DNA of 64,000 nt from Candidatus Zhuqueibacterota bacterium (GCA_034506315.1 JAPDPT010000003.1:10878-74877); one strand, 5' to 3'; counted from the first letter of the stretch, positions 11,077-63,519 are shown. Made by a program: numbers and translations. The notes: generated from the letters alone by a model not told the origin.

Positions 11077-11192
11077 GGCCGATTCCCGCCTGGGGCGCCT
11101 GGCTCCTGGAGAACGACGGGAGCTCAGGACGCGTGGGGAAAGATCAACGGAGCCTGGGGAGGCCAGCTCGTAACTCCGGAGGCGAGCCGAAC

Positions 11193-14909: not shown

Positions 14910-14928
14910 CCCGGTGCGTGAGGGATAG

Positions 14929-18287: not shown

Positions 18288-18399
18288 GAGCATCCGACCA
18301 CCCTGGCCTGAGCAGGCGATCTGTAAGTCCGGACGAGGCGAGGGTGCGGGGACGCGTGGGCGGGTGGCCATGCGTGCAGGGCGCACGTGGGAGGAACGG

Positions 18400-22100: not shown

Positions 22101-22340
22101 CTCTGGGTCCCATTGAAAGACCTTGAACTCGTAGGCGTCGAATCGATTCAGTCCCTCATTGGTGCCAAACCACATGAAGCCCTGGCTGTCCTGGTAAATG
22201 CAGTTGACCTTGCTGTGGGAGAGTCCGTGTTCGACGGAGAAGTTGCGGAAATGGGGGCTTGGCTCTTGGGCGAGAAGCACGGTGCCGGAGAGGAAAGCGA
22301 TTAGCCCCGCGCCCTTCGACCAAACTCCTCGGACACGCAT
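19191..22340 (-). CDS. periplasmic beta-propeller / Y_Y_Y ligand-sensor fused to LytS-type histidine kinase (His_kinase PF06580-like + HATPase)
   Basis: Signal peptide, then about 13 two-component-regulator-propeller repeats (G.LWFGT..GL..FD) and a Y_Y_Y domain (GTYTFRVRAANNDGRWN). One TM follows, then the LytS-type H-region NPHFLFNAHNSIRSMI and QPLVENAIRYG. Convergent with the LytTR RR. Confidence 0.85.
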   Translation of the reverse strand: MRVRGVWSKGAGLIAFLSGTVLLAQEPSPHFRNFSVEHGLSHSKVNCIYQDSQGFMWFGTNEGLNRFDAYEFKVFQWDPESPGSLSANLVRCIFEDSHGRLWIGTEAGGLNLFDRGTETFTHFSADSTSPVSLGGKNVNAILEDREGNLWLATENGLDRLNPDTGEIAHYPLPVGKEVPTREVLALCEDPDGRLWVGTAAAGLALFDRRTQQWTFFRHRDGDPSSIGDNAIYSLHVDTRGRLWIGTAYGGLNLLDRRTMRFHQYHPDPDDPESTTIRAILDDGRGNLWVGNRSGLYRFNPRTGQFVRYNHNPSDPASLAHNSVLTLFKDRKGDLWIGTRGGVSYLSFDLPFYRFRAEANNPRCLNDGTVYALLEDRQGNLWFGTEHGGLNYLDRTTGLFTYYTRHPQRRNSLSVNNIKALLEDRHGNLWIGTYGGGLNILDPSRTRFTHLSAGRAGRPGLSANHVMALLEDREGAIWVGTYGGGLDLVRARGPRIEKIERVLPNDSIPGFENILALCEDRQGAIWVGSGNNRVACLNKRTGAIRLYLLGDRTGNVDTRCIVEDSRGRLWFGTVGAGLYCLDSTRQVLRNYTRKDGLPSNTVYGILEDNHGFLWLSTTNGLSRFDPRTGQCKNYGREAGLASDQFNYNAYCRTRRGEMLFGGINGVTIFHPDSIRENAYVPPVVITDFRIFNRPVLVGGKEPILRQHISQTSTLVLSYRHSVFSFEFAALNYANSEQNQYAYKMEGFDQDWIWAGNRRFAVYTNLNPGTYTFRVRAANNDGRWNDQGVAVRIRILPPFWQTWWFRLLLVLILGVLAYHFMDYQKQKRNALKAMALANEAQLKLLRYQMNPHFLFNAHNSIRSMIHIDKDRAWQMITELSEFFRYTLMNFNKLYASLEEELNALNNYLHIEKIRYGDSLDVRFEIDDAARQCLIPAFTFQPLVENAIRYGMKTGPIPLKVAVVVRYRRGILSIDVSNTGRLLSPKETGTDGDLGLHGTSLQNIRQRLEIMFRNRHSFRLYEQDGWVHARIRIRYKRPEIASRLQAHEERLS

Positions 22341-22729
22341 GGCAGCGACTCCATTCGGACTGGGGAAGCCCTTGACCTGGAGCCTCACGCCTTGCAAATT
22401 AGAATGTCGCGGGACTATGTCAAGGCCTTCCTTGGGGTGGTGTGCGAAGCCCACGCTCTGCAGAGGTCACCAAGAAGCCGGAGGAAGGTGCTATCTACCA
22501 CTTAAAGGCGCCCCGTGCCGCTCGCATTCCTATTTTGCCGCTCACATAATCCCCCTTGCGCGGGAGGGGGGCGGATATAATGTTAGCGCGGGTAGGAGGC
22601 TGGGAGTGCGGAATTCACGCACGAGCGGGGGCAAAAATACCGCAGAGGATCAGCAGCGATCATACCAGGATAAGGGGCAGGAGGATGAGAGGTAGCGTTC
22701 GGAAGATCGGCAGGATTGGAGAGGCCACG

Positions 22730-25624
22730 ATGAGCCGGAGGGTCGGGCCGCGAGCCTTCACGCTGCTGGCATGGTTCCTCGCAGGGGGCATCGCTGCATT
22801 TCCCCTTGGAGTCGGCTTAGCTCAGAGCGTGGGGAAGATCGCCGGTACCGTACGGGACGCCCAGACGGGTGAACCCCTGCCGGGTGCCAACGTGGTGATT
22901 GTGGGGACCACCATGGGTGCCGCCGCCGACGAACAGGGCGACTATTTCATTCTGAGCGTCCCGCCCGGTCGCTACGAGGTCCGAGCCTCGATGATGGGCT
23001 ACGAGTCGGTGTCGGTGGTCGATGTGATCGTGAACGCGGGCAGAACAACCCGCGTCGATTTCCGCCTCGCCCAGAGGGTGTTAGAACTGCGCGAAGTAGT
23101 CATTCAGGCCGTCCGCCCCGATGTGGAGCGTGATAAGACATCAACCAGCGCCATCCTGCGTTTCGACGAAGTGGAGATGCTACCTGGGGTTCGGAACATT
23201 GCCGACGTCATTAACCTCACAGCCGACGTGGTGGACGGTCACTTCCGCGGCGGCCGTACAGGGGAGGAGTATTACATCCTCCAGGGACTGGGCATCGTGA
23301 ACCCTCTGGACCGCTCGGCTGCCTTCCTGCCCATCATGAGCGCGGTAGAGGAGGTGGAGGTCATCACGAGCGGATTCGGCGCGCAATACGGCAATGCCCA
23401 GTCGGGCGTGGTGAACATCTCCATGAAGGAGGGGGACCCGCGAACGTGGCGGACGCGCGTGGAGCTCCGTGCGCGCGCACCGGGGCGCAAGCACTTCGGC
23501 CCCAGCGTCTACGATCCGGCGGCCAACGTTTACCTACAACTCCTGCTACTGGATGAGACCTGGTTGCGCGGGGATCCGAGCTCCGACCTCCGCCAGCCCT
23601 ACTACGGCTCAATGGGCTCAGGCCTGACCAACTATTTCAAGGGAGACACTCTTATCCAGATGGCGGTGGCTAAGGCGCTGTGGCTGCAGAGCCGCCGCGA
23701 TATCGGGCGCGATTATGGGGAAGAGATCGACCACTCGGTAGAGGTCGCCACCGGCGGGCCCATCAACAATCGCCTGCGGATGTTTGTGGCAGCGCGCGCC
23801 AATCGCGACTGGCCGACATTCCCGACCGAGAGGCCGAACGCTGAGTATCAGGCCATGGGCAACGTGGTCGCGGACCTGGGCGGTGCGGCGACCCTGCGGG
23901 TCAGCGGGGGCCTCTCCCACCAGCGAGGAAACATCTTCCCCGGCTCGAACAGCGTCAGCGGATACCAGCGTTGGCTCTGGGATCGGATCACGGGGATCCA
24001 GCAGAGAAAGAGGGTCAATGCCCAGCTCGGCATGCGCTTCACGAAGATGTTCAGCCCGAGCGCCTACCTGGAGCTCAAGCTGAATTCCCTCTTCACCAAC
24101 AATTACCAAGGCTCGACCCCTGTGCCGAACGTGTTGCCCGATACGGTAGACGTGAACTGGGTGGTAGGGACCATCGCCTTTCCGAACAACAATTCGCCGG
24201 ACCTGTTGAACTACCAGCTGGGTTACGACAATTTCCTGGACCAGAAGACGCGTACGATCTCCCTGGAAGGTTCCTTCACCGATCAGATCACAAAGAGTCA
24301 CCTTCTGAGCGCGGGTGTTCAGGTCAACACCTATCGGATCGATGTGTCCAATTTCCTGGGCATTCGGTCCACCCGCCAATTGGAGCGCTACAAGGCCCAT
24401 CCATTTGAGGCGGCCGTCTACGTTCAGGACAAGATGGAATTCGAGGGGATGATCGCCAACGTGGGCTTGCGCTACGATCTGTGGTACGCGGGCACGGAAT
24501 ACTACACTGACCTTTACACGCCGTTCGGTGACCCGGACGCCCACGGACGCTTCGACCCGTCCAAAGGCAAGACGGAGAAGGCGCCCGTCTACATGCGATT
24601 GCAGCCACGACTCGGCATTTCCTTCCCCGTCTCGGTGGGTACGGTGTTCCATCTCAATTACGGTGCCTTCATGCAGAGGCCTGCGTTCCAGTACATCGTC
24701 TCCCGGAGGCTGGGCCAGCGCCTCAACGACCCAGTGATCCTGGGCAATCCGAAGCTGGAGCCTGAGACGACCAATAGCTACGATGTGGGAGTGGTCCAAT
24801 CTCTTGGTCAGGGCTTCACCCTGGACGTGAGCGGCTACTACAAGGACGTGAAGAATCTGGTCCAGCAGGCGAACTTTATCGATCAGAGAGCCGGCTATCA
24901 GGTGAGCTCCTATTTCAACCTCGATTACGCGGATATCCGCGGCTTCCGCATCGTGCTGAGCAAGCGGAGAGGAGCCCTCACCGGCTCGATCAACTATCAG
25001 TACGGGTACGCGACGGGTAAGAGCGCAACGGCTACGGCCGCCACGCCGATTTTCAACCGGGATACGAGCAATGTGGTCACCACCGACCTCACGAACGTGC
25101 CGACGCGGGACATCATCCTGGATTTCGATCGGACGCACAATCTGGTGGTGGCTCTTTCCTACGCCTTCGGCAGGGATTTCGGCCCCCAGGTGTTGGGTAC
25201 GCGACCGCTGGCCGACCTCAACGTCTCTGCCTACTCCACGGTCCGGAGCGGCCGGCCCTATACTTCCCCGTTCGACATTCGCCTCATCAACGTGAAGCGG
25301 GCCCCCGCCGAGTACAACACGGATCTGCGGATCACCAAGATCGTGCGCAAGTTCCTCGGTGTACAGGCCCGTTTCTACTGTGAGGTCTACAACGTCTTCA
25401 ACAACAAGATCCTGAACTACGACTATCTCTTCCAGAGGCCCACGGCGACCAACCCGAACCTGCCGCTTCAGTACTACGAGAAATACCCGATTGACGACAA
25501 GCGGAATGGCGTCCGTTACTGGTGGGACAAGGGGAGGCAGGGTCCGTTTGCGATCGACCAGTCCTTCCTGATTTACGACAATCAACCCCGCTCCTTCCAG
25601 TTCGGTGTGGTATTCGAGTTCTAA
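22730..25624 (+). CDS. TonB-dependent outer-membrane receptor, SusC/RagA-like (CarbopepD_reg + plug + barrel)
   Basis: Signal peptide, then a carboxypeptidase-regulatory-like domain (GKIAGTVRDAQTGEPLPGANVVIVGT...GRYEVRASMMGYE), a plug region and a C-terminal barrel ending FGVVFEF. Confidence 0.85.
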   Translation: MSRRVGPRAFTLLAWFLAGGIAAFPLGVGLAQSVGKIAGTVRDAQTGEPLPGANVVIVGTTMGAAADEQGDYFILSVPPGRYEVRASMMGYESVSVVDVIVNAGRTTRVDFRLAQRVLELREVVIQAVRPDVERDKTSTSAILRFDEVEMLPGVRNIADVINLTADVVDGHFRGGRTGEEYYILQGLGIVNPLDRSAAFLPIMSAVEEVEVITSGFGAQYGNAQSGVVNISMKEGDPRTWRTRVELRARAPGRKHFGPSVYDPAANVYLQLLLLDETWLRGDPSSDLRQPYYGSMGSGLTNYFKGDTLIQMAVAKALWLQSRRDIGRDYGEEIDHSVEVATGGPINNRLRMFVAARANRDWPTFPTERPNAEYQAMGNVVADLGGAATLRVSGGLSHQRGNIFPGSNSVSGYQRWLWDRITGIQQRKRVNAQLGMRFTKMFSPSAYLELKLNSLFTNNYQGSTPVPNVLPDTVDVNWVVGTIAFPNNNSPDLLNYQLGYDNFLDQKTRTISLEGSFTDQITKSHLLSAGVQVNTYRIDVSNFLGIRSTRQLERYKAHPFEAAVYVQDKMEFEGMIANVGLRYDLWYAGTEYYTDLYTPFGDPDAHGRFDPSKGKTEKAPVYMRLQPRLGISFPVSVGTVFHLNYGAFMQRPAFQYIVSRRLGQRLNDPVILGNPKLEPETTNSYDVGVVQSLGQGFTLDVSGYYKDVKNLVQQANFIDQRAGYQVSSYFNLDYADIRGFRIVLSKRRGALTGSINYQYGYATGKSATATAATPIFNRDTSNVVTTDLTNVPTRDIILDFDRTHNLVVALSYAFGRDFGPQVLGTRPLADLNVSAYSTVRSGRPYTSPFDIRLINVKRAPAEYNTDLRITKIVRKFLGVQARFYCEVYNVFNNKILNYDYLFQRPTATNPNLPLQYYEKYPIDDKRNGVRYWWDKGRQGPFAIDQSFLIYDNQPRSFQFGVVFEF

Positions 25625-25636
25625 GGAGCCTGGCCT

Positions 25637-27862
25637 ATGTGGCGGAGAAGGAATGCTGCGGTTGTGCTTGTCGGTCTGCTTGCGGGGATAGCCTCGACGG
25701 CCACCAGTCAGCAGCGGGACTGGAGGGTCCACACTCGCGGCATGCTGCATCAGACGGTTTTCAATACGGGGGAGCTCGGACGGGCCTATAGCGCCGGAGG
25801 CACCATCCAGGTCGGCATGCCCTCGATGGAATGGCCCCCCTATTCCAACATGGTGCTCGACCGTCGGAACTACCCCGGTCAGCACAATTCCTTTGGAAGC
25901 GGGATCTGGTTGGCCGGTACACGTCCCAGCGGTCGGAAGTACGCCTTTTGCGGCGCAGTTTCCAACGCCAGTGGTGATCCGGTTCCGGTGGTGGGCGTCT
26001 ACAGCATCCCCATTCGGATTGAGAGGATTGAGAATTTCCCCGTGCTGGCCACTGGGGAGCTGAATCCGAACTTCAACCCCGACGAGGCGGAGGAGATCAT
26101 CATCTCCGAGTGGGACACTCCGGTGGGCGTTCGGGTGACCCGGACAAGCCGGGCGTGGAGCTATCCTGGCTACAACAACTTCATCATCTACGAGTACGAG
26201 TTCAAGAACGTGAGCCCGGACACCATTACGGACCTTTTCATCACCTTCGCCTGTTCTTTTGCTCCGTCCATGTTCGGCTACCAGCGGAACCACGGGAATT
26301 GGACCGAAAGCGCCTTCCGGGGGCAGCCCCCGGCTGGTCTCGGCGACCATTTCGCTCGCTTCGATCTGCGCCGCTGGCTGAGCTACAACCACGAGCGAGA
26401 CGGCCTTCCCGACCCGGTCTTCTTCGAGGAGTGGTCTAAGCCAGGGGACCGCGGGGGGTTGAACTCACCCCAGGCTGTGGGGATCATGGTTCTGCACTAC
26501 GACTACGAGCACCTGGCTCGGAAGGACCAGACGAAGCAGGTTTTCCTGGCCACCACAGACAGCGCCGGCATGTGGGACGAGAACGGCAAGGCCAAGCAGC
26601 CGTTCCTCCTCCGATACGAGAACGGCAACCTTCCCGAAACGAAGATCGGAACGTGGATGGATCCAACCCTGCAGCGGAAGACGGCGATCTGGCAAGGGTC
26701 AAAAGACTCCTCCATCTTCTGCGGGCAGTTCGATCCCGAGCTCTGGCCTTACTGGAAGGGGCGCACAAAAGGGTCGGTCAACCTTTCCTGGTGGCAGCCG
26801 GTGAACCGCGCCTATGGGTTCTACCCCTACATCCTCCCGCCGGGGGAGACCATCCGCTTTGCCGTAGCGGAGGTGGTCGGGTATGGTCCGGGCGTAGCGG
26901 GCGACAGCGTTTACAAGGATCTGGGCGGGAACATCCGGGCTGGCGTGGACGCGGGCTTCTACTTCCATCCAGTGCCGAGCTGGTATAAGAAGCTCCGTTA
27001 CGACTACCTGGGAACCAAGGACTACATTGGCAGCGACTATCTCCAAACCCACCCCCTACCTTGGTACGTGACGCCTGGCGTGGTCTCGATCCGGGACGTG
27101 GCGGACCGCGCCATTCAGATCTACACGGGACGCCCGCTAATGAAGTACGACACCTTGCAGTACAAGCCGGAGGAGGCCCCGCCCAGAGGCCGCTACGACA
27201 CCGTGCCGATCCCCTTCCCGGCCCCGGCGATCCGGGTCGAGAATACCCACGCCGCCGCTAACCGGATTGTGTGGGGCCCGGAGGTGGAGAACTTCACCTG
27301 TCCGAGACTGCGAGCACCCCTGAGTCATTACCTCGTGCTGCGCGCACCGCATCCCCTGGGGCCGTGGACCGTGATCGACTCGGTCGGAATTCGCGATCCT
27401 CGGTACTTCCGGGACGGTCAGTACGCGGTCCTGGATCCTTATAGCAATTTGGGGGACAACGTTGCTTACGCCGTGGTCTCGGTGGATGAGCTGGGCGGAA
27501 GAAGCGGGATGACCAACCTGACCATCCACGAGACCCAGGCGCCACCCTCGGAAAGGCTGGGCAAGGTTTACGTGGTGCCCAATCCGCTGATCGTGACGAG
27601 CGGGCTTACGGGCTCGGACCCCGCCGGGGAGATTGGTGACCGGATCCAGTTCATGGGTCTTACCAAGCGCTGCGTAATCCGTATCTTCTCGTATACCGGA
27701 CAGCTTGTAATGACCATCCGGCATGAGCGAGAGACCTACGGCAATCCGTGGTATCAACTGAGCGTGAACAATCAGCTGATCGCCTCGGGGGTGTACTACT
27801 TCGTGGTGGAAGATCTCGACACGGGCGAGCGAGCCAGCGGCAAGTTCGTGGTGATCCACTAA
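25637..27862 (+). CDS. uncharacterised secreted protein with divergent T9SS-type C-terminal sorting domain
   Basis: Signal peptide with no lipobox and an AAGGAG RBS; no recognisable catalytic or SusD-like motifs. The last ~90 aa follow the T9SS CTD pattern (VYVVPNPLIV...IRIFSYTGQLV...ASGVYYFVVED...GKFVVIH). Confidence 0.55.
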   Translation: MWRRRNAAVVLVGLLAGIASTATSQQRDWRVHTRGMLHQTVFNTGELGRAYSAGGTIQVGMPSMEWPPYSNMVLDRRNYPGQHNSFGSGIWLAGTRPSGRKYAFCGAVSNASGDPVPVVGVYSIPIRIERIENFPVLATGELNPNFNPDEAEEIIISEWDTPVGVRVTRTSRAWSYPGYNNFIIYEYEFKNVSPDTITDLFITFACSFAPSMFGYQRNHGNWTESAFRGQPPAGLGDHFARFDLRRWLSYNHERDGLPDPVFFEEWSKPGDRGGLNSPQAVGIMVLHYDYEHLARKDQTKQVFLATTDSAGMWDENGKAKQPFLLRYENGNLPETKIGTWMDPTLQRKTAIWQGSKDSSIFCGQFDPELWPYWKGRTKGSVNLSWWQPVNRAYGFYPYILPPGETIRFAVAEVVGYGPGVAGDSVYKDLGGNIRAGVDAGFYFHPVPSWYKKLRYDYLGTKDYIGSDYLQTHPLPWYVTPGVVSIRDVADRAIQIYTGRPLMKYDTLQYKPEEAPPRGRYDTVPIPFPAPAIRVENTHAAANRIVWGPEVENFTCPRLRAPLSHYLVLRAPHPLGPWTVIDSVGIRDPRYFRDGQYAVLDPYSNLGDNVAYAVVSVDELGGRSGMTNLTIHETQAPPSERLGKVYVVPNPLIVTSGLTGSDPAGEIGDRIQFMGLTKRCVIRIFSYTGQLVMTIRHERETYGNPWYQLSVNNQLIASGVYYFVVEDLDTGERASGKFVVIH

Positions 27863-27881: not shown

Positions 27882-28925
27882 ATGGGTGCTTCGGCGGAAA
27901 CCAAACGAGTGCTTGTGCTCATGGTTGCCCTGGGCCTGGTGGCGACGCACTCGGCCCTGGGGCAAAAGGTGGGTAGCACCTCCATGCAATTCCTAAAGGT
28001 GGTGCCGTCGGCGCGCGGTGCCGCCCTTGGCGAGGCCTACTCGGTCTGGGCAACAGGCGCAGAGGCCATCTTCTGGAACCCTGCGGGCCTGTCCAAGCTG
28101 GAGGGGATGGAGTTCACAACCACCTACGTCGATTGGCTCTTTGACGCTCAACAAGGGGCGCTGGCCATCGCCAAGTCCTTCCAGGGGATGGGGACGATTG
28201 GCCTCCAGCTACAGTACGCCGACTTCGGCGAGTTCGAGGAGACAAGCACGGCGCGACCGTACATCAACGACCCAGAGCACCCCGGATTTACCGGGCGCAC
28301 CTTCCGCCCGTTCGGCTGTGTCCTGGGGGCCACTTACGCTCGCGACCTCACCGACAAGTTCTCGGTGGGCATCGGGATGAAGTACGCGTACCAGTCCCTG
28401 TTCAGCGAACGCGAAGTGACTGCGATGGTCCGGCAGGGGGTCTACGAGCAGGTGAAGACCTGGGCGGGTGGGCTCCTTTTCGATTTCGGGATCCGCTACA
28501 ATACCGGTTACCGGACGATCCACATCGGCTCTTCGGTGCAGAACTTTGGTGCCAACGTGAAGTTTGCCAAGGAAGCTCACCCTGTACCGCTGCTTTTCCG
28601 CTTCGGCGTCGGTGCCGACCTGCTCGGCCCCCATGCGCTCCTTGTGCCAGGTGAAGGGGAACACCGTTTAGGGATGGTCTTCGACATCTTCCACCCCAAT
28701 GACTACGACCAGCAGATGCACTTGGGAGCTGAGTACGAGTTCCGGGGACTGCTTGCCCTGCGGGCAGGCTACAAGTTCAACTACGACTTTGACGGCCTCA
28801 CTCTTGGGGCCGGAATCAAGTACGCGGTGGACGGCCTGCGCGTGCGGCTCGACTGGAGCTACGGCGACATGGGAACCTATCTGGGCAACGTGCAACGGAT
28901 AAGCGTGGGATTGACTCTGCCATGA
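27882..28925 (+). CDS. PorV/PorQ-family outer-membrane beta-barrel protein (T9SS cargo shuttle family)
   Basis: After the signal peptide the family signature reads FLKVVPSARGAALGEAYSVWATGAEAIFWNPAGL (pattern FL.I.PdARs.AMGd..vA...dA...WNPA). The 347-aa size matches PorQ-like proteins. Confidence 0.7.
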   Translation: MGASAETKRVLVLMVALGLVATHSALGQKVGSTSMQFLKVVPSARGAALGEAYSVWATGAEAIFWNPAGLSKLEGMEFTTTYVDWLFDAQQGALAIAKSFQGMGTIGLQLQYADFGEFEETSTARPYINDPEHPGFTGRTFRPFGCVLGATYARDLTDKFSVGIGMKYAYQSLFSEREVTAMVRQGVYEQVKTWAGGLLFDFGIRYNTGYRTIHIGSSVQNFGANVKFAKEAHPVPLLFRFGVGADLLGPHALLVPGEGEHRLGMVFDIFHPNDYDQQMHLGAEYEFRGLLALRAGYKFNYDFDGLTLGAGIKYAVDGLRVRLDWSYGDMGTYLGNVQRISVGLTLP

Positions 28926-30424
28926 AGGGCGCAAGGATTCTTCTAAGCGTGGTCCTGGGACTGACGGCTCGCCTGGTGCTTGCCCAGGGATACGGTGGTC
29001 CTGTGAACTTCCAAGGTCTCGAGCACGTTCAGCTTCACTCCGCGGCCGCTCGGGGCATGGCGGGGGTGTACTCGCTGCGGCAACCCGACCTGGGATCGAT
29101 GTTCAACCAACCAGCCGCCTTGGGCCCGCTCACTTCCCTGGCTGTTTCGGCGGGAGGTTTGCGGCGCGCAGAGCGGCTTGAGCAGGAGCAGAACTACGCC
29201 CCGGTCCGTTACTACCCGAACCTAAGTCTCTTGCTGGAAAGCTTGTCCTTCAAGATTCCGGATCCCAATCCAGAGGTTCCGGGCTTTACACCTGCGGACA
29301 CGGTGCAGAGGCCTTACGATCGCATCGGGCCCAACTGGTCTCGCACGGATCACGGTTACAAGCCGCTGCACTTGCTCGTCGCGTCTCCGATTCTTCGGGG
29401 TGGCTTCAAACTGGTAGCTGGGTTGGGGGCCGTGACGTACGCCGATCTGGATTACTATTACCAGAACAACAACGTCCTTTCGCCTTCCATTCTCTCGCAG
29501 CGGCCTTTCCCGACGCTGCGTCCGACGGACGACAACCCGCTGGCTGTGGACTGGTACCAGACGGTGCGCTCGCGCGAGGGCGCCGTCTATGCCTATGGCG
29601 CAAGCCTCGTGGGCTGGGTGGAAAAGCTCCACTTGTCCGTTGGCGTGAGCGCGGCCGTCTTGCGCGGCACCAGCGACGATCTGGAGCGAGATCTCGGGAG
29701 GGGAAAGCTCACCTTCTTCTCCAATGCGTTCCGGGCTGACTCGGTCTACTGGTGGGTCCAGAGGACCGGTACGTCCAAGTTCCGGGGTTACGACGTGACC
29801 GTCGGCACCGCTCTCGTGGCGAAACACGTCGGCCTTGGCGTTTCCGTCAAGCCACCCTCCGAGATCCGGCGGGAATACTCGGGGAGGATCCAGACGCCTG
29901 GCGCCGGGATTCTGCGTGGAGCTGATCTCTTCGCTGGCGAGTTGGCCGCGGGCAATAGGTCCGTGGAAAAGGAGGATCGCCTCAAGCTGCCCTGGCGAGG
30001 GGCGGTAACGATGTCCCTCGCCCCCAAGCAGTGGCTGACGCTAGGCTTCGAATACGAGTTCAGACCCTATGGGTCCGCGCGCTACGTGGACCCGCAGGGG
30101 GCTGAGAGCAGGCCATGGCTTGGGAGTTCCCCGTTCCGGGCCGGCTTCGAGTGGAGCCCACGCCCCTGGCTTAGCCTGCGCGGGGGGATGCGCAATGAGG
30201 CCGAGGTTTTTGAACCGGAGGGGAATCATCTCCCGGGAGAACCGGTGGTCTACACGGCGTACTCGGCAGGTGTAGGCTTGAGGTGGGCGAACTGGCGGCT
30301 GGACTTGGCGGTCGAAAGCTGGGAGCGCAAGTACGAGGACATTTGGTCCAGCGCGATCAGCAAGAACCGGCAGCGCGTTCTGGCAGTGCTGGGCCAGCTC
30401 TCGTACGCGATGGGGGGCTGGTGA
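28922..30424 (+). CDS. second PorV/PorQ-like outer-membrane beta-barrel paralog
   Basis: ATGA overlap with the upstream gene and a signal peptide. A degenerate signature reads HSAAARGMAGVYSLRQPDLGSMFNQPAAL; the rest has beta-strand-rich alternating hydrophobic periodicity. Confidence 0.5.
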   Translation: MKGARILLSVVLGLTARLVLAQGYGGPVNFQGLEHVQLHSAAARGMAGVYSLRQPDLGSMFNQPAALGPLTSLAVSAGGLRRAERLEQEQNYAPVRYYPNLSLLLESLSFKIPDPNPEVPGFTPADTVQRPYDRIGPNWSRTDHGYKPLHLLVASPILRGGFKLVAGLGAVTYADLDYYYQNNNVLSPSILSQRPFPTLRPTDDNPLAVDWYQTVRSREGAVYAYGASLVGWVEKLHLSVGVSAAVLRGTSDDLERDLGRGKLTFFSNAFRADSVYWWVQRTGTSKFRGYDVTVGTALVAKHVGLGVSVKPPSEIRREYSGRIQTPGAGILRGADLFAGELAAGNRSVEKEDRLKLPWRGAVTMSLAPKQWLTLGFEYEFRPYGSARYVDPQGAESRPWLGSSPFRAGFEWSPRPWLSLRGGMRNEAEVFEPEGNHLPGEPVVYTAYSAGVGLRWANWRLDLAVESWERKYEDIWSSAISKNRQRVLAVLGQLSYAMGGW

Positions 30425-30492: not shown

Positions 30493-32055
30493 ATGGGCAT
30501 TCGGCGAACGGTTTGGGCGCTTGTGGCTTTGATGTCTTTTGCAGGCCTGAGGGCATGGGGTCAGTCCGTAGGGGATTACCGCACGCGTGCCACCGGGGAT
30601 TGGAGTAACCCCCAGATCTGGCAACGATACAACGGGACTACGTGGGTCGCTACCGCTAATCCGCCCTCTGGGAGCGAGACGATCACGGTCCAGAGCGCGG
30701 ATTCGGTTTACGTCAACGTCCCAGTGGTGATCACCGGTCGGCTGATCAACCAGGGACGGATCGAAGGCGCGGGGAACCTTTCGGTCGGCAACGGTGGCAT
30801 TTACCAGCACGATCGGGACGGAGGGACGATCCCGACCATCATCTGGCAGGACGGTTCCACCCTGCTGATGACGGGCACTGTTTCCCAGGCGCCCGCCAAC
30901 CGAAACCAGAGCTATTACAACATGGTATTCGACACCCCCAACCAGTCTGCGAACTTCAACATGGGCCTGGATAATGTGACGATCCGAGGAAATATTCGGG
31001 TGATCAACACGGGCTACGGCCGCTGGTATCTGACCACGGCCGCGGCGATGGACACGGCGATCGTCACCGTTCTCGGCGACGTCATTGTCGAAGGCGGGGC
31101 CTTTTCTGTCCAGGGCACCGGCAATGCCCAGACTACCTTCATCGTTCACCACTACGGCAATATCGTTGTGACCGGGGGCAACTTCTCGATCAGCCGTGGC
31201 TCTCAGCCGGGCGGTACCACGACCTGGTACCTGTACGAAGGCGACTTCTCCATGTCGAACGCCACCACCCAGAGCTCTACTCAGACGCCAGGCGGTGCAC
31301 GCTTTGTTTTCGCCAAACAGGGTGTTCAACACTTGACGCTGGGCGAGGGGAACACGATTAGCTCCCTCCCCATCGAGGTGAAGGGCGGCACTGCCCTGGA
31401 TATGGGGATGAGCCGGCTGGCGGGGAGCGGGATCTTCATTCTCAACGAGGGCGCTACGCTGATGACCGGCCTACCCGGCGGAGTTGAGGAGATCTTCCAG
31501 TCGTGCACAGGGGCGATCACGCTTGCCGACGGCTCAAGCTACGGCTTCAACGGCACAAGCCATCAGATCACGAGCTCGAAGATGCCGACCGTCGTCCGGG
31601 ACTTGATCATCAACAACCCGGCCGGAGTGACCCTCTCCCAGCAGACGACCATCCTGGGCGTCCTCCGACTGATGGCCGGTGAGTTCGACAACACCATCCC
31701 CTTCGTTCTGGGGCCCGAAGGGAGGATCTCCTTCGAAGGCGGCACACTGAAAATACCGGTCGGGGTCGAACGGCAGACTGCAGAGGTCCCGACGAGCTTC
31801 TCCGTAGCCCAGAACTACCCGAATCCCTTCAATGCCTCGACGTGCATTCGCTTGGATCTCCCATCCGCCTGCAGGGTGCGGATCAGGGTAGTGAATGTCC
31901 GTGGCGAGGAAGTGGCTACGCTCTTCGACGGACGCAAACCGGCCGGCACCCACACGGTGATTTTCGAGGCGGGCGATTTGCCCTCGGGCGTTTACGTGTA
32001 CCGTGTCGAGGCTGAGGGGCAGGTGCGCGTAGGGAAGATGATTTTGCAGAAGTAG
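30493..32055 (+). CDS. secreted protein, one copy of a novel ~410-aa module plus canonical T9SS C-terminal domain
   Basis: Signal peptide. The module starts GDYRTRATGDWSNPQIWQ and its C-terminal T9SS sorting domain reads AQNYPNPFNASTCIRLDL...VYVYRVEAEGQVRVGKMILQK. Module-level paralog of the giant gene that follows. Confidence 0.8.
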   Translation: MGIRRTVWALVALMSFAGLRAWGQSVGDYRTRATGDWSNPQIWQRYNGTTWVATANPPSGSETITVQSADSVYVNVPVVITGRLINQGRIEGAGNLSVGNGGIYQHDRDGGTIPTIIWQDGSTLLMTGTVSQAPANRNQSYYNMVFDTPNQSANFNMGLDNVTIRGNIRVINTGYGRWYLTTAAAMDTAIVTVLGDVIVEGGAFSVQGTGNAQTTFIVHHYGNIVVTGGNFSISRGSQPGGTTTWYLYEGDFSMSNATTQSSTQTPGGARFVFAKQGVQHLTLGEGNTISSLPIEVKGGTALDMGMSRLAGSGIFILNEGATLMTGLPGGVEEIFQSCTGAITLADGSSYGFNGTSHQITSSKMPTVVRDLIINNPAGVTLSQQTTILGVLRLMAGEFDNTIPFVLGPEGRISFEGGTLKIPVGVERQTAEVPTSFSVAQNYPNPFNASTCIRLDLPSACRVRIRVVNVRGEEVATLFDGRKPAGTHTVIFEAGDLPSGVYVYRVEAEGQVRVGKMILQK

Positions 32056-32113
32056 GTAGGGGGAACCGACAGGCAGCGAGTCATTAAGGGTCCAAGCCGT
32101 GGAGGTGACTGTC

Positions 32114-35100
32114 ATGAAGGCAAGAGTCCCGGCGGTATGGGCGGCGCTGTCTGTGTTCTTCGGCTTCTGCGCGCTGGGTCTGGCGCAGCAAGTCGGTGAT
32201 TACCGCTCCGTAGCGAATGGCAATTGGAGCGATCCCGCCACCTGGGAGGTGTTCGACGGAACGCAATGGGTGGCAGCCACGCTGGCCCCCACGGGTGCGG
32301 AGAGTATCACGGTAGACGGCACGGACACGGTCAAGGTCGATGTGCCAGTCGAAATCCGTGGTTATCTGCGGGTGAAAGACACGGGCGTGGTCATGGTGAC
32401 CGAGACGGGTTCTCTAACCTTTGGGAACGGAGGCACATACGAGCACGCCCGCAACGGTGGTTCGGTGCCTACGGCGACCTGGCTCGAGGGCTCGACGGCC
32501 CTTTTTACAGGGATCACCACGACCGCTCCGGCCAACCGGGGTCAGGATTACTGGAATGTAGTACTCAACACTCCTGGACTAACCGCCAATCTCGACCTGA
32601 ATCTGGCCGGGAAGACGATCTCGGGGAACGTGACGGTGGTCAATACCGGCACGGGACGCTGGCGCCTGGTTGGGGGGACCAGCGGGACGGTCACCATCAT
32701 GGGTGACCTGATTGTGCAGGCCGGCCAATTTGAGACGCAGGGAACCTCGAGCTCCACACAGGTGGACGTGCACCATTACGGAAGCGTCCGGGTCACGGGC
32801 GGTGAGTTCTCGATCAGCCGGGGCTCGCAGGGCGGCGCAACGGGCACCGGCTACACCCGCTGGTACCTCCATCAGGGCGATTTCTTCATGTCCAACGCGA
32901 CCACGAGGAACTCCAACCCGTGGCGAGCGACGTTTGTGTTCGCCAAGGTGGGAGGAGTCCAAAACCTCGTGCTGGAAAACGTGACGTTTCTCGCCGGGGG
33001 CTTGCCCGTGAAAGTCGATAGCGGTGTCACTCTGAATCTGGGCACCTCCGTGCTCGGCGGCGACGGCAGCTTCGTCCTCTCGCCGGGGGCCACCCTGCGG
33101 ACGGCCCTGCCCGGCGGTCTGGACCAGGCCCTTGCGACCACTGGGAGCAAGTCCCTGAGCAAGCAGGCCAGTTACACCTTCGATGGCGTTGAGGCTCAGG
33201 TGCCTGGGGCTTTGTTGCCGGACTCCGTGGCCACCCTGACCGTAGCCAATCCCGAGGGCGTCACCTTTACGGACACGCTGTGGGCCCATCAGCTCGAGGT
33301 GAACGCCGGCTCTCTCATGAGGATCGACAGCCTCGGGGTAGTTACTGTGGACTCCGGCGGTGTGGCCGGGGCGATCTGGTGCAAGGGCGTGCTTACGGCC
33401 TCGGACACGCTGTACTTTATGTCTGGCTCCGTCTACGACCATGCCCGGGACGCCGGGAGCCTGCCCAATGGGCGGTGGGCTGAGGGCTCTACACTGTTGC
33501 TTTCGGGAACGGTGCAGAATGCCCCGTCCAACCGCAATCAGAACTTTCACCATGTGGTGTTCAACACGCCGAATTTGACCAAAAACCTCAGCATGGGCTG
33601 GGACGGGGTGACGATCGGCGGGGACATCCGTGTGGTGAGCACAGGGCTGGGCCGCTGGTACATGAGCACGGCTGCGGTGGGCGACACGGCGGTCATCACG
33701 GTCCTTGGCGACGTCATCGTCGAGAACGGCAACTTCTCGGTCCACGGTACGGGCAACGCCCAGACGGTCTTCCTTGTGCACCACTACGGGGACGTGGTGG
33801 TGACGGGCGGCAACTTCTCCATTGCGCGCGGTTCCCAGGGCAACGGGAGTGGCAAGACGATCTGGTATTTGTACGAAGGTGACTTCTGGATGTCGAATGC
33901 GACGACGCAGAATTCGAACCCGACCCCAGGGAACGCGAAGTTTGTGTTTGTTAAGCCGGGAGTGCAGCGACTGGTTCTGGGTGCGGTGAACAACATCCAG
34001 AATCTGCCGATCGAAGTGTGCCCCGGAACAACCCTGGACGTGGGCAACAGCGTGCTTGCCGGTACCGGAATCTTCGTGGTGCGGGAAGGGGCTACGCTGG
34101 CCACCGCACACACGGGCGGAGTTGCAGGATTCCTGGGAACGGTGGCTGCAAGCGGGGTAGCGCTCAGCAAGTCGGCGAACTATGTCTTCAATGGCACCGA
34201 GCCCCAGGTGACGAGCACCAGCTTGCCGGACACGGTGAGCGATCTGGTGATCAACAACCCCGCCGGCGTGGCGCTGTCTCGGGAGACGACGATCAATGGT
34301 GTGCTGCGTCTGATGAGCGGGGAGTTCGACAATACTGTTCCGTTCACGCTTGGACCCACGGGCAGAATTTCCTTCGAGGGAGGGTCACTGAAGGTGCCCT
34401 TGGTGGCCTCGGAGTACCGCTCGGTGGCCACGGGCAACTGGAGCCAGGCGTCCACGTGGGAGGCCTTCCTGTTCGGGCGCTGGATGGCCGCACCAATGGC
34501 TCCGACAGGTAGCGAGCAAATCACGATTCGCAACGCCGATACAGTACGGGTGGACATGCCCGTGGTCGTTCGTGGCTACGTCAAGATACAGGATAGCGGC
34601 GTGCTTGTGGTGGAGGGCGGTAGCCTGACCTTTGCCGACAGCAGCTATTACGAGCACGCGCGGGACGGTGGAATCCTTCCCAGCGCGGTCTGGGAGCCGG
34701 GGTCCACCCTGTTGCTCACGGGAATCGTGGAGAACGCTCCCGCCAACCGCAATCAGAACTTTCACCACGTGGTGTTCAACACGCCGAACTTGACAAAGAA
34801 TCTGAACATGGGCTGGGACGGAGTGACGATCGGCGGGGACATCCGTGTGGTGAGCACGGGGCTGGGCCGCTGGTACATGAGCACGGCTGCCGTGGGCGAT
34901 ACAGCGGTGATCACGGTCCTTGGTGATGTCGTTGTTGAGGGTGGGCACTTTTCGGTGCATGGGACGGGCAATGCCCAGACAGTGTTTTGGGTGCACCACT
35001 ATGGCGACGTGGTGGTGACCGGTGGCAACTTCTCCATTGCGCGCGGTTCCCAGGGCAACGGGAGCGGCAAGACGATCTGGTATCTGTACGAAGGTGACTT

Positions 35101-37126
35101 CTCGATGTCGAATGCCACCACCCAGAACTCAAACCCGACTCTTGGGAACGCGAAGTTCGTGTTTGCCAAGACGGGTCTGCAGCGACTGGTTCTGGGCGCG
35201 GGCAACAACATCCAGAATCTGCCGATCGAGGTGAGTTCCGGCACCACCTTGGACGTAGGCACCAGTGTGCTGGCCGGACAGGGGATGTTTGCTCTTAATG
35301 CGGGCGCAACGCTGGCGATCGCCCATCCAGCTGGCGTAGCCGGGTTCCTCGGCGCGCTCCCGGCCAACGTCGTGTCGCTAAGTGAGGCAGCCAACTTCGT
35401 GTTCAACGGGACGGAGCACCAGGTTACGAGCACCCTGATGCCCTCGGTAGTAAATGACCTGACGATTGCCAACTTGGCGGGTGTAGAGCTGTCACAAGCG
35501 ACGACCATCAATGGGGTTCTGCACCTGGTGGCGGGTGAGTTCGACAACACTGTTCCATTCGCCCTTGGACCCAACGGACGCATTTCGTACGAGGGCGGAA
35601 CCCTCAAGGTGCCGCTTGTCGCGTCCGAATACCGGTCGGTCACAACGGGGAACTGGAGCTCCGCCTCGACCTGGGAAGGTCTTGTGGGCGACCGTTGGCT
35701 GGCGGTTCCCGCGGCGCCCGTGGGCACCGAGAAGATCACCGTGCGGGGTTCGGACACGGTCAAGGTGGACGTGCCGCTGGAGTTCCGCGGCTATCTGAAG
35801 GTGGAGGAATCCGGTGTAGTTACGGTCACCACGGGCTCGCTTGCGTTCCTGGAAGGCAGCGTCTACGAACACGCGCGGGACGCCGGGATCCTGCCCTTAG
35901 CAGAGTGGCGTCCAGGCTCGACGCTGCTGATGACGGGCACGGTGCAGGACGCGCCCGCTAACCGCAACCAGAACTTCTACCATGTAGTGTTCAATACCCC
36001 CAATCTCACACGTAATCGGGACATGGGTTGGGACGACGTGACGATCGGTGGGGATATCCGCGTGATCAGCACAGGCCAGGGTCGTTGGTACTTAACCACA
36101 GCCGCCGCCAACGATACGGCGATCGTTACGCTCATGGGCGATGTGATCGTGGAGGGCGGCGCCTTCTCGGTCCAGGGTACGAGCAACGCTTTGACCACAT
36201 TCATCGTCCATCACTACGGGAATATCCGGGTAACGGGGGGCAACTTCTCGATATCGAGGGGTTCTCAGGGTAACGGAAGCGGAACCACCACCTGGTACCT
36301 CTACCAAGGTGACTTCTCGATGTCGAATGCCACGACGCAGAACTCGAACCCGACCCCTGGGAACGCGAAGTTTGTCTTCGCGAAAGCAGGGGTGCAGAAG
36401 CTGGAGCTGGGAGAAGGCAATACGATCCTGAAGCTCCCCATCGAAGTGAGACCCGGTACGACGCTGGAAGTGGGTCAGAGCGTGCTGGCGGGCAATGACA
36501 TCTTCGTACTGTCCGAAGGAGCGACGCTGGCCCTCACTCACCCCGACGGGGTAGCTGGCTTCCTGGGCAGCGTGCCCAACGAGTTGGTTACTCTTAGCCC
36601 GGCGGCTAACTTCTGGTTCCACGGGTCGCTGCGCCAGGTGACGAGCACCCGGATGCCCAACGTAGTCAATGACCTCATTATCGACAACCCCGCGGGCGTT
36701 GTTCTTTCGCAGCCGACAACGATCAACGGTGTGCTGCGCCTGGTCGCGGGTGAGTGCGATAATACCATTCCGTTCACACTCGGCCCCAACGGGAGGATCT
36801 CCTACGAGGGTGGTACCCTGAAGGTCCCGGTAGGCGTGGCTGGCCGCGACGCTGCAGTGCCTGCCCAGTTCGCACTGCATCAGAACTATCCTAACCCCTT
36901 CAACGCCAACACGACCATTCGGTACGAGCTTCCGACCACCGCGCATGTAGTCCTCAAGATTTACGATGTGACAGGGCGGGAGATTGCGGAGCTCGTCAAC
37001 GCCAAGCAAGGCCCCGGGATCTTCACCGTGACCTGGAGTGCGGACGGGTTGCCGAGCGGCATTTACTACTGTCGGATGATGGCCGGTGAATTTGTGGCGA
37101 TGCGCAAGCTGGTCTTGATGAAGTGA
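32114..37126 (+). CDS. giant secreted repeat protein (about 1670 aa): four tandem ~410-aa modules plus T9SS C-terminal domain
   Basis: ATG with a GGAGGTG RBS and a signal peptide. There are four repeats of the module [EYRSV.TGNWS..STWE ... YEHARDGG..P...W.PGSTLL.TG.V..APANRNQNF.HVVFNTPNLT.N..MGWD.VTIGGDIRV.STG.GRWY..TAA..DTA..TV.GDV.VEGG.FSV.GT.NA.T.F.VHHYG.V.VTGGNFSI.RGSQGNGSG.T.WYLY.GDFSMSNATTQNSNPT.GNAKFVFAK]. The CTD reads HQNYPNPFNANTTIRYEL...GIYYCRMMAGEFVAMRKLVLMK. Confidence 0.85.
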   Translation: MKARVPAVWAALSVFFGFCALGLAQQVGDYRSVANGNWSDPATWEVFDGTQWVAATLAPTGAESITVDGTDTVKVDVPVEIRGYLRVKDTGVVMVTETGSLTFGNGGTYEHARNGGSVPTATWLEGSTALFTGITTTAPANRGQDYWNVVLNTPGLTANLDLNLAGKTISGNVTVVNTGTGRWRLVGGTSGTVTIMGDLIVQAGQFETQGTSSSTQVDVHHYGSVRVTGGEFSISRGSQGGATGTGYTRWYLHQGDFFMSNATTRNSNPWRATFVFAKVGGVQNLVLENVTFLAGGLPVKVDSGVTLNLGTSVLGGDGSFVLSPGATLRTALPGGLDQALATTGSKSLSKQASYTFDGVEAQVPGALLPDSVATLTVANPEGVTFTDTLWAHQLEVNAGSLMRIDSLGVVTVDSGGVAGAIWCKGVLTASDTLYFMSGSVYDHARDAGSLPNGRWAEGSTLLLSGTVQNAPSNRNQNFHHVVFNTPNLTKNLSMGWDGVTIGGDIRVVSTGLGRWYMSTAAVGDTAVITVLGDVIVENGNFSVHGTGNAQTVFLVHHYGDVVVTGGNFSIARGSQGNGSGKTIWYLYEGDFWMSNATTQNSNPTPGNAKFVFVKPGVQRLVLGAVNNIQNLPIEVCPGTTLDVGNSVLAGTGIFVVREGATLATAHTGGVAGFLGTVAASGVALSKSANYVFNGTEPQVTSTSLPDTVSDLVINNPAGVALSRETTINGVLRLMSGEFDNTVPFTLGPTGRISFEGGSLKVPLVASEYRSVATGNWSQASTWEAFLFGRWMAAPMAPTGSEQITIRNADTVRVDMPVVVRGYVKIQDSGVLVVEGGSLTFADSSYYEHARDGGILPSAVWEPGSTLLLTGIVENAPANRNQNFHHVVFNTPNLTKNLNMGWDGVTIGGDIRVVSTGLGRWYMSTAAVGDTAVITVLGDVVVEGGHFSVHGTGNAQTVFWVHHYGDVVVTGGNFSIARGSQGNGSGKTIWYLYEGDFSMSNATTQNSNPTLGNAKFVFAKTGLQRLVLGAGNNIQNLPIEVSSGTTLDVGTSVLAGQGMFALNAGATLAIAHPAGVAGFLGALPANVVSLSEAANFVFNGTEHQVTSTLMPSVVNDLTIANLAGVELSQATTINGVLHLVAGEFDNTVPFALGPNGRISYEGGTLKVPLVASEYRSVTTGNWSSASTWEGLVGDRWLAVPAAPVGTEKITVRGSDTVKVDVPLEFRGYLKVEESGVVTVTTGSLAFLEGSVYEHARDAGILPLAEWRPGSTLLMTGTVQDAPANRNQNFYHVVFNTPNLTRNRDMGWDDVTIGGDIRVISTGQGRWYLTTAAANDTAIVTLMGDVIVEGGAFSVQGTSNALTTFIVHHYGNIRVTGGNFSISRGSQGNGSGTTTWYLYQGDFSMSNATTQNSNPTPGNAKFVFAKAGVQKLELGEGNTILKLPIEVRPGTTLEVGQSVLAGNDIFVLSEGATLALTHPDGVAGFLGSVPNELVTLSPAANFWFHGSLRQVTSTRMPNVVNDLIIDNPAGVVLSQPTTINGVLRLVAGECDNTIPFTLGPNGRISYEGGTLKVPVGVAGRDAAVPAQFALHQNYPNPFNANTTIRYELPTTAHVVLKIYDVTGREIAELVNAKQGPGIFTVTWSADGLPSGIYYCRMMAGEFVAMRKLVLMK
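32180..36860 (+). repeat. intragenic tandem DNA repeats, period about 1.21 kb
   Basis: One diverged copy plus three highly similar copies. For example 33523-33720 vs 34742-34940, and 33781-34080 vs 34988-35290, are about 90% identical at nucleotide level. Anchor codons (YEHARD) sit at about 32440, 33437, 34650 and 35864. Confidence 0.8.
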
Positions 37127-37173: not shown

Positions 37174-37183
37174 CACGAGGCAA

Positions 37184-37218
37184 GAAGCCCGGCCTTTCAG
37201 GCCGGGCTTTTCATTTCT
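37184..37218 (+). terminator. rho-independent terminator of the repeat-protein operon
   Basis: A 10-bp GC stem AAGCCCGGCC / GGCCGGGCTT with loop TTTCA, followed by TTTCATTTCTT. Confidence 0.65.
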
Positions 37219-37506: not shown

Positions 37507-37902
37507 GTGCAGAAGCGCAGTTACAGGGCGGTGATCGTAGACGACGAGTGGCTCATTCGTTCCGAACTGCGGATGCTTCTGGGAAATTTCCCGGAGATCT
37601 CCGTTGTGGGCGAGGCGGCCACCGTGTACGAAGCGGCAGAAGTCATCCGCCGGACGCGTCCTGATGTCGTCTTTCTCGATATCCAGATGCCTGGTGAGTC
37701 AGGGCTCCGTCTGCTCGACATGGTGGAACGCGATTTTGAGGTGGTTTTTGTTACTGCTTATCCGCAGTACCGGGAAGAGGCCATGAAGTTTCGCCCGAAG
37801 GCCTATCTCCTCAAGCCGATCCGGGTTGGAGATCTGTCACAGGTGATCGCACAACTGGCAAAAGGCAAGGAGAGCCATGAGGATCCAGGGAGTCAAAGGT
37901 AG
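37507..37902 (+). CDS. stand-alone receiver domain protein (LytTR-type receiver lacking the LytTR output domain)
   Basis: The receiver sequence (RAVIVDDEWLIRSELRMLLGNFPEISVVGEAATVYEAAEVIRRTRPDVVFLDIQMPGESGL...) aligns nearly residue-for-residue with the receiver of the LytTR RR at 18400. Start chosen at an in-frame GTG by analogy (longest ORF begins 37369). The 3' end overlaps the next gene by 26 nt. Confidence 0.55.
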   Translation: MQKRSYRAVIVDDEWLIRSELRMLLGNFPEISVVGEAATVYEAAEVIRRTRPDVVFLDIQMPGESGLRLLDMVERDFEVVFVTAYPQYREEAMKFRPKAYLLKPIRVGDLSQVIAQLAKGKESHEDPGSQR

Positions 37903-63451: not shown

Positions 63452-63519
63452 CCCACTGGCCTCAGCTGACGAGAAACAAGAAAACGGACCCGGCTTCTTC
63501 GCCGCAGTCCGTCTGACCA

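Follow-up and report, generated by a model that had tools for sequence, protein, structure and literature searches.

What do two overlapping genes for outer-membrane barrels do in the midst of genes for secreted proteins, and are the two barrels relatives of one another? The question is raised by a locus of Candidatus Zhuqueibacterota bacterium (GCA_034506315.1), lying in a stretch of 64,000 nucleotides (JAPDPT010000003.1:10878-74877; 62% guanine plus cytosine, GC) that was analysed whole and is called the window here. In it, gene A (27882-28925, 347 aa; the NCBI start is at 27909) is followed by gene B (28922-30424, 500 aa), both on the plus strand. A first-pass annotation of the window had described the pair as tandem, translationally coupled paralogs of the PorV/PorQ family, embedded among cargo genes and acting as dedicated barrels rather than as a general shuttle. 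We find that this description fits A and fails for B: A is a predicted PorV/PorQ-family outer-membrane barrel of the 14-strand type, B a predicted FadL-fold barrel closest to BamG, and the two are very probably dedicated, non-paralogous subunits of a conserved module linked to a TonB-dependent transporter (TBDT). The likely partner of A is a protein of 741 residues encoded immediately upstream, hereafter X741, which the first-pass annotation did not mention, and not the ordinary cargo encoded downstream; the unit as a whole is linked with a TBDT in loci for the use of pectin.

The placement of A is carried by its scores on NCBIfam profile hidden Markov models (HMMs). A reaches 205.6 bits on the generic model NF033709 (PorV_fam; cutoff 90), the match running over model positions 1-325 of 326, and the profile of its family matches the solved structure of PorV, 6h3i_F, at E 3e-12. 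The protein is identical to an NCBI entry named 'PorV/PorQ family protein' from the same metagenome-assembled genome (MAG) of candidate division KSB1. On the narrower models that delimit PorV and PorQ proper, A scores 76.8 bits (PorV equivalog NF033710, cutoff 250) and 90.1 bits (PorQ equivalog NF033711, cutoff 220), a pattern that describes a family member which is neither the PorV nor the PorQ equivalog. Searches with the A-family profile found 11,902 clusters at 50% identity with E ≤ 1e-3 and 414 with E ≤ 1e-30, and some of the homologs carry weak matches to PF03349. Among the 101 nearest full-length cluster representatives, 50 reach generic PorV_fam and none reaches either equivalog at E ≤ 1e-55; because of this absence, and because the clusters at E ≤ 1e-30 are so numerous, A belongs to a large uncharacterised branch of the PorV/PorQ family.

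B presents a different picture at every level of comparison. It has no match at E ≤ 1 to NF033709, NF033710 or NF033711, and none in Pfam, where the B of the window stays below the gathering score of PF03349 (29.7 bits); many of its orthologs carry a precomputed PF03349 match. A compared with B by BLASTP yields E=0.37, and hhalign, set to compare the A-family with the B-family alignment, returns a probability of 18%. The N-terminal signature that had been reported for both genes is found by regular expression in A and in a third gene of the window discussed below, and is lacking in B, which carries instead a shifted relative of it, ARGMAG...FNQPA (family consensus ...FQNPA), that can be aligned to BamG's N-terminal tail and that we take to be the hatch/NPA motif general to the FadL superfamily. 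The AlphaFold2 model of B, built from 40 homologs, is a beta-barrel (mean predicted local distance difference test score, pLDDT, 77.5; predicted template modelling score, pTM, 0.77) with conserved surface loops that are poorly modelled and a conserved, extended N-terminal tail. The protein itself is 100% identical to ONB23_01480 of a candidate division KSB1 MAG.

Foldseek places this model closest to BamG (9n2d_B at 1e-15, then 9hiv_F and 9hjm_F), followed by FadL, TbuX, TodX and CymD. Over BamG, FadL, TbuX and TodX the E values run from 1e-15 to 1e-8, with template modelling scores of 0.53-0.57 when normalised to the query and 0.62-0.68 when normalised to the target, so that the model superposes on the FadL fold; PorV is not within its top 50 matches. 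The likeness to BamG extends to sequence, since the sole match of the B profile in the PDB is BamG (E=0.0017), residues 12-92 of B aligning with BamG 6-86, that is, with its N-terminal tail and hatch, without net insertion or deletion. On the BamG equivalog NF053685, however, B scores only 14.8 bits (E=0.011) against a cutoff of 250. Taken together, these comparisons indicate that B belongs with the FadL barrels at the level of the structural superfamily only, is BamG-like, and is not of the PorV/PorQ family. Its reading as a diverged PorV/PorQ paralog is ruled out concordantly by NCBIfam, Pfam, BLASTP, hhalign, the PDB profile search and Foldseek. The first-pass annotation had named subthreshold scores on NF033709 and NF033710, or a classification as a FadL-type protein, as what would speak against its own claim, and for B both were found.

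Unrelated as the two barrels appear to be, their genes are firmly joined. The tandem reading frames and their overlap are as the first-pass annotation had drawn them: at the junction, CCATGAAGG, the TGA stop of A overlaps the ATG of B, and at the A/B junctions of 67 related loci we count 50 ATGA and 11 TAATG overlaps. Because stop and start are thus overlapped in 61/67 of these loci, the arrangement is not due to chance, and translational coupling is conserved. The pair is also embedded among cargo genes as described, with type IX secretion system (T9SS) cargo genes flanking A and B.

How far does this company extend beyond the window? A scan with a profile of X741 over one genome per species recovered 152 relatives in 185,579 species genomes, from which 79 loci were kept; synteny was mapped by tblastn, and counts refer to loci with enough sequence. 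The order is constant: a TBDT (in the window at 22730-25624), X741 (25637-27862), A, B and a T9SS cargo protein of 520 residues, CTD520 (30493-32055), all on the plus strand. The TBDT stands upstream of X in 68/69 loci, A comes next in 70/71, B follows in 65/66 and CTD520 in 57/62. The cassette occurs in KSB1, Calditrichia, Ignavibacteria, Rhodothermales (the cultured Roseithermus sacchariphilus among them) and MAGs of other Bacteroidota, at one locus per genome with a single exception. The claim that the barrels are dedicated ones is thus supported for A, whose equivalog scores lie below cutoff, which occurs about once per genome in strict synteny (the 70/71 above), and whose neighbour X ends in an unusual secretion domain described below; for B as a PorV/PorQ paralog it is not. 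Our literature searches returned no description of this TBDT/X/A/B cassette, and the genome papers on Caldithrix and Zhuqueibacterota are silent on it as well.

The substrate is suggested by the flanks. Pectin genes adjoin the cassette in 8/8 other loci with annotated flanks, among them glycoside hydrolase family 28 (GH28, directly upstream of the TBDT), GH88, Pel9A-like lyases, pectinesterase and GDSL esterases, KduI, KduD, UxaC, KdgK and Eda. The window and its closest relatives differ, with a two-component regulator upstream and proteins built of the CTD520 module downstream.

The sequences are close even between phyla. The KSB1 window and Roseithermus sacchariphilus (L024/L083, CP030158.1, ~1.6216-1.6309 Mb) share 74% identity in X741, 67% in the TBDT, 61% in A and 48% in B, a degree of similarity that suggests either horizontal transfer of the pectin locus among lineages of the Fibrobacteres-Chlorobi-Bacteroidetes (FCB) group or extreme constraint. 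Fragments of the cassette also turn up in MAGs labelled Methanolinea tarda (L074) and Synechococcus sp. (L078), which almost certainly reflect binning contamination, and several MAG labels such as 'Cytophagia', 'Chlorobiaceae' and 'Deferribacteres' look unreliable.

The head of the cassette resembles a SusC/SusD locus without being one. As in such loci, a TBDT of ~960 aa with a CarboxypepD_reg domain heads a carbohydrate-active enzyme locus equipped with its own sensor and regulator, and the gene of a conserved surface protein stands directly downstream. The window's TBDT has Pfam CarboxypepD_reg and OMP_b-brl_3 domains and NCBIfam TonB-receptor matches that include the plug region, which is its most conserved part; its open reading frame (ORF) opens at 22556, and the likely start is M59 at 22730, with the signal peptide following M59. 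On TIGR04056, the model for SusC/RagA transporters that work with SusD, it scores 56 bits against 368, in the N-terminal domain only, and we regard it as SusC-like in layout and not SusC. The other departures are that there is no SusD, that X741 has, in place of a lipobox, a signal peptide of type I together with a T9SS C-terminal domain (CTD), and that the cassette adds one or two FadL-fold barrels.

X741 itself (741 aa, putatively exported by the T9SS) falls into no Pfam family and, downstream of its TBDT, shows neither a SusD domain nor a lipobox. Its signal peptide is followed by a novel N-terminal region of ~500 aa, an FN3-like domain and the CTD; the C-terminal ~230 aa are tandem beta-sandwiches for which Foldseek finds only FN3/Ig-like C-terminal sandwiches. 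CHU_C matches the protein below threshold (19.5 bits against 27). Several of its homologs at 70-92% identity are named as T9SS C-terminal target or type A sorting domain proteins. Its last ~100 residues read ...GKVYVVPNPLIVTSG...RIQFMGLT.RC.IRIFSYTGQL...ASGVYYFVVED...GKFVVIH, with the T9SS CTD motifs VVPNP, ASGVYYF and GKFVVIH and, in addition, an insertion.

It is this CTD that sets X741 apart from ordinary cargo. On TIGR04183, the generic type A model, X741 scores 14.9 bits against a cutoff of 23, and its orthologs score 15-28 bits. For the CTDs of six cassette X proteins, the best match is in each case to the PorZ equivalog, over its C-terminal ~90 positions, at 23-36 bits; the generic type A model comes second, and the PorU C-terminus appears weakly in two of the six. 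In the CTDs of four more distant X-like proteins the PorZ C-terminus is again best in all four, followed by the PorU C-terminus, which brings the range over all ten X-type CTDs to 18-36 bits. The generic type A model is lower on all ten, being below its cutoff in 7/10 and at 23-28 bits in the other three. The five control CTDs behave in the opposite way (those of CTD520, of two further cargo proteins of the window, CTD1675 and CTD550, of an orphan X paralog, and of a cargo protein of locus L091): TIGR04183 is the best match of 5/5, at 33-51 bits, and none matches PorZ. The X profile has a single match in the PDB, to residues 663-757 of PorZ (5m11_A, E=0.012). On the full PorZ equivalog NF052228, X proteins score 25-36 bits against 260, over model positions ~660-757 only; X741 as a PorZ homolog is ruled out, the match being confined to the CTD. 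The CTD of X is conserved at least as well as the remainder of X (0.70-0.77 against a mean of 0.69), whereas in CTD520 conservation is lower in the CTD than in the passenger.

The orphan paralog just mentioned provides a further comparison. In MAG MFD05942.bin.1.467 (L054:9965-12187, CAVTJO010000007.1), an X paralog of 57% identity, the only one that stands without TBDT, A and B, ends in a canonical type A CTD (...KLLLLK), whereas in the copy that this MAG has within a cassette (L039) the PorZ-type CTD is preserved. The two classes of CTD correlate perfectly with the presence of a barrel.

Is the association of a TBDT, an X-like protein and an A-like barrel confined to pectin? We looked at the contexts of seven distant A-like barrels, 30-36% identical to A. 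The order TBDT, X-like, A-like recurs in L085 (X-like protein of 644 aa, with sulfatase, dehydratase and tripartite ATP-independent periplasmic transporter genes alongside), in L088/L089 (719 aa) and in L091 (760 aa, followed by canonical cargo); in L092 an X-like C-terminus, a gene of 214 aa and an A-like gene stand in a row, and in L087 and L090 an A-like gene adjoins a TBDT in GH5/GH78 loci on contigs that break off at the TBDT or within it. In L085 and L088/L089, N-terminal segments of the X-like proteins are matched by the X741 HMM as well. No B-like gene is present in these distant A-like cassettes, and B is therefore an add-on of the pectin subtype. A related arrangement may exist in the published xylan locus of Rhodothermus marinus (Rmar_1070-1073; PMC6987092), in which a TonB-dependent receptor precedes hypothetical proteins that have Por-secretion CTDs, apart from one that lacks it; the locus is a candidate member of the same class.

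What could these proteins do together? Two precedents from Porphyromonas gingivalis are instructive: the CTD of PorZ is uncleaved and retained on PorQ, and that of PorU on PorV, and according to a proposal made in review, CTDs are shielded against cleavage by their cognate PorV-like barrels (PMC10202324). By analogy, X741 would be exported by the T9SS with its PorZ-type CTD kept, and this CTD, like those of PorZ and PorU, would stay uncleaved and bound to its cognate barrel A. A would thereby pin X741 at the cell surface beside the TBDT, where X741 could capture or process pectin fragments for TonB-driven import, as a functional stand-in for SusD. B would be made in fixed ratio with A through the start/stop overlap, and might be a second structural adaptor that either docks on the TBDT or keeps some other component at the surface. 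This reading, in which A is the dedicated anchor of X741 in a SusD-less uptake complex assembled by the T9SS and B a BamG-like accessory barrel, stands in our judgment at about even chances. The evidence for it is all comparative, and from it we infer the retained CTD, the contact between A and X741, the role of B and the complex with the TBDT.

The likenesses to known barrel/cargo pairs, and the departures from them, can be stated fairly precisely. With PorQ-PorZ and PorV-PorU the cassette shares the pairing of a PorV/PorQ-family barrel with a T9SS-exported protein, the CTD of X741 resembling the retained CTDs of PorZ and PorU; unlike those pairs, X741 matches PorZ in its last ~90 residues only, A stays below the PorQ and PorV cutoffs, and A and X741 are encoded together with a TBDT in carbohydrate loci, whereas PorQ and PorZ serve the processing of cargo for the whole system. 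A second parallel is offered by the PorP/SprF barrels, which are encoded beside type B cargo (PMC10202324). In the SprF-SprB pair of Flavobacterium johnsoniae, as here, the gene of a dedicated PorV-like barrel adjoins that of a presumed anchored protein; the differences are that A is of the PorV/PorQ family, that the CTD of X741 is a derived type A or PorZ-like one, and that the setting is nutrient uptake and not gliding adhesins. The cassette would on these analogies work like the known pairs (PorQ-PorZ, PorV-PorU, PorP/SprF). For B the parallel is BamG, which binds to BamA from behind and holds BamH, a lipoprotein of the surface (PMC12578637, PMC12611786). BamG is the best structural match of B (E 1e-15 to 6e-13 over the three chains) and has an N-terminal tail of the same length, and it exemplifies a FadL-fold barrel whose use is that of a structural adaptor, with a surface protein held by it. 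B differs in being only 13% identical to it and ~100 residues longer, in lying in a pectin locus, and in being coupled to a PorV-family barrel and not to BamA.

Several observations weigh against the anchoring of X741 by A as just set out. First, the similarity to the PorZ CTD is weak in absolute terms (the 18-36 bits and the PDB E value of 0.012 given above), and it rests on a beta-sandwich of ~90 residues that is common to all T9SS CTDs. Second, the AlphaFold2 model of X741 is poor (pLDDT 54.6), with the N-terminal 500 residues unmodelled, and because these residues could not be modelled, any binding or enzymatic role of X741 is a guess. Third, the window's own locus contains no recognisable pectinase, the substrate having been assigned by orthology to other loci. 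Fourth, the available contigs of L087 and L090 hold no X-like gene beside their A-like barrels. Finally, the role given to B is the weakest step: being absent from the cassettes outside the pectin subtype, B is not needed for the principle that links X, A and the TBDT.

Four other explanations deserve to be weighed. The one that survives best is that A is a transient, cargo-specific shuttle, which would collect X741, CTD520 and CTD1675 at the SprA translocon and pass them to the PorU sortase. PorV, whose structure the A family matches and to whose family A belongs, has been described as a shuttle (PMC10202324), and several T9SS cargo genes do surround A. Those downstream, however, encode cargo with canonical type A CTDs, which a general PorV should handle, and this cargo is variable or missing in some loci (the 57/62 for CTD520). 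The invariant partner of A is X, with a CTD that resembles the two known to be retained and not processed, and the one X paralog with a swapped CTD is without A. We therefore consider a shuttle unlikely.

Less probable still is that A, B or both are solute channels of the FadL type, taking up hydrophobic or esterified products of pectin or other small molecules. B shares with FadL, TodX and TbuX (PF03349) both the fold and the N-terminal hatch/NPA motif; the match of its model extends to the channel CymD, many of its homologs carry PF03349, and esterases (GDSL, pectinesterase) are encoded in the loci. Pectin products are hydrophilic, however, and the context of the locus offers no hydrophobic substrate. 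B is only 9-13% identical to these channels, and the protein that it matches best in structure, and alone in sequence, is BamG, which does not transport; the N-terminal tail of B aligns with that of BamG, which has been described as blocking lateral opening (PMC12578637). As for A, the known proteins of the PorV/PorQ family bind the CTDs of proteins, not solutes, and a channel would leave unexplained why the coupling to a T9SS protein whose CTD is special should be so tight.

In a third alternative, B is a BAM-type assembly factor (BAM, beta-barrel assembly machinery), a BamG paralog that folds or inserts the TBDT or A and forms no part of the complex once finished. Three of the first five Foldseek matches, the top ones, are BamG chains, BamG is the sole PDB sequence match, and the BamG model of NCBIfam does respond, if weakly (E=0.011). 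Yet the 14.8 bits reached on that equivalog are far from its cutoff of 250; the ~100 additional residues of B include conserved loops that are absent from BamG; and B occurs only in pectin cassettes, the analogous cassettes of TBDT and A-like barrel doing without it. We judge this role very unlikely. That A is simply the general PorV or PorQ of the organism, its adjacency to B and cargo being coincidental, is hardly credible, for although the T9SS cargo and the PorQ-like gene in the window imply that a T9SS exists, the gene order is kept in ~65-70 loci that belong to four or more lineages, the start/stop overlap is conserved as well, A scores far below both equivalog cutoffs, and of 185,579 species genomes only ~150 have the cassette, its neighbours being the same every time.

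Returning to A as the anchor of X741, the distant loci invite a broader and more tentative proposal, which we hold to be somewhat less probable than the anchor itself: the triad of TBDT, X-like protein and A-like barrel could represent a general, undescribed uptake machine of FCB bacteria, in which a surface partner delivered by the T9SS is held permanently by its own PorQ-like barrel through an uncleaved PorZ-type CTD. If so, the triad would be the T9SS-built counterpart of SusCD/utilisome complexes, to which the pectin version adds a BamG-like barrel, and the 414 A-like clusters at E ≤ 1e-30 would mark such systems for different substrates.

To our knowledge, the SusC/SusD lipoprotein systems of Bacteroidia are the only ones in which cell-surface glycan capture is well understood. 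Sediments, hot springs and soils harbour KSB1, Calditrichia, Ignavibacteria and Rhodothermales as abundant degraders, and in these groups many TonB-receptor loci are without SusD. A T9SS protein tethered beside the transporter by its own PorQ-like barrel would, if true, explain how such organisms build surface uptake complexes. It would further carry the 'retained CTD' principle of PorZ/PorQ beyond one housekeeping pair, to a large family of anchors for particular cargo, assign a function to hundreds of proteins annotated as 'PorV/PorQ family protein', and turn the distinction between PorZ-type and canonical CTDs into a sequence rule that predicts which T9SS cargo stays bound to a barrel. The presence of the cassette in Roseithermus sacchariphilus, which is cultured and has a complete genome, makes these ideas directly testable.

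The first-pass annotation had also listed a third copy of the barrel, here called C, and had seen in the three an unusual density of paralogs. C is real: it lies outside the cassette at 62513-63451 on the minus strand, and meets the PorV_fam model with 124.6 bits (cutoff 90). Its start at 63451 is likewise right, because a tRNA-Thr gene (CGT) at 63520-63593, also on the minus strand, overlaps the longer, mechanically derived ORF 62513-63556; the search for RNA families returned nothing in addition to this tRNA. On the PorQ equivalog C scores 168.4 bits against 220, the closest of the three barrels though still below the cutoff, and on the PorV equivalog NF033710 it scores 23.4 bits against 250; it is 25% identical to A, and no record of exactly this protein exists. 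Since its neighbours are housekeeping genes (those for a cysteine desulfurase, mnmA, panB and kdtA), C is probably a separate, general PorQ-like gene, unrelated to the A/B locus. The density of paralogs falls with B, which is not of the family, and with the setting of C: the window holds only two PorV/PorQ-family genes, 32 kb apart and in unrelated contexts.

The remaining genes around the cassette fill in its regulation and its cargo. Upstream lie a LytTR-type response regulator (18364-19137, plus strand; Pfam Response_reg and LytTR), the probable regulator of the locus, which is found next to the cassette in L084, the closest relative, too, and, divergent from the cassette, a sensor histidine kinase (19191-22454, minus strand) with 12 Reg_prop repeats, Y_Y_Y and a LytS-type His_kinase domain, which has orthologs on the upstream side of the cassette in L010, L017, L066 and L084. 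Downstream, CTD520 has a canonical type A CTD (TIGR04183 31-33 bits), and is followed by CTD1675 (32099-37126, plus strand), whose 1675 aa consist of four tandem CTD520-like modules and one canonical type A CTD (40-44 bits). BLASTP between the two gives four matches of 47-59% identity, at residues 13-392, 422-768, 772-1173 and 1177-1675, so that the passenger module of CTD520 occurs five times within 6.6 kb. Outside its CTD, CTD520 has no match in Pfam, NCBIfam or the PDB, and the module may represent a domain of a new kind, either catalytic or pectin-binding. A terminator-like hairpin on the plus strand (37183-37211; a 13-bp stem with 8 GC pairs, then a run of T) probably ends the transcription unit.

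Beyond the hairpin there is a second TonB-dependent receptor (37877-40891, plus strand; TIGR01782 314.6 bits, plug present), paired with the 550-aa T9SS cargo protein CTD550 (40982-42634, plus strand), which has a canonical CTD (47-51 bits) and no barrel gene. Like CTD520 and CTD1675, CTD550 thus exceeds the type A cutoff of 23 bits on TIGR04183. This second pair adjoins the cassette also in at least seven other loci (L007, L009, L020, L026, L031, L038 and L067), and is another recurrent pairing of a transporter with a T9SS protein. Farther from the cassette, the window contains, upstream of the cassette at 10093-19137, a dense island of signal-transduction genes (one response regulator of the GGDEF type, three PAS histidine kinases, of which two include a receiver domain, a receiver on its own and one sigma-54 activator), a further sigma-54 activator at 47444-48820, and, at 61-3516, a GH38 alpha-mannosidase of 1151 aa that adjoins a xylose-isomerase-like TIM-barrel protein and a SurA-like peptidyl-prolyl isomerase.

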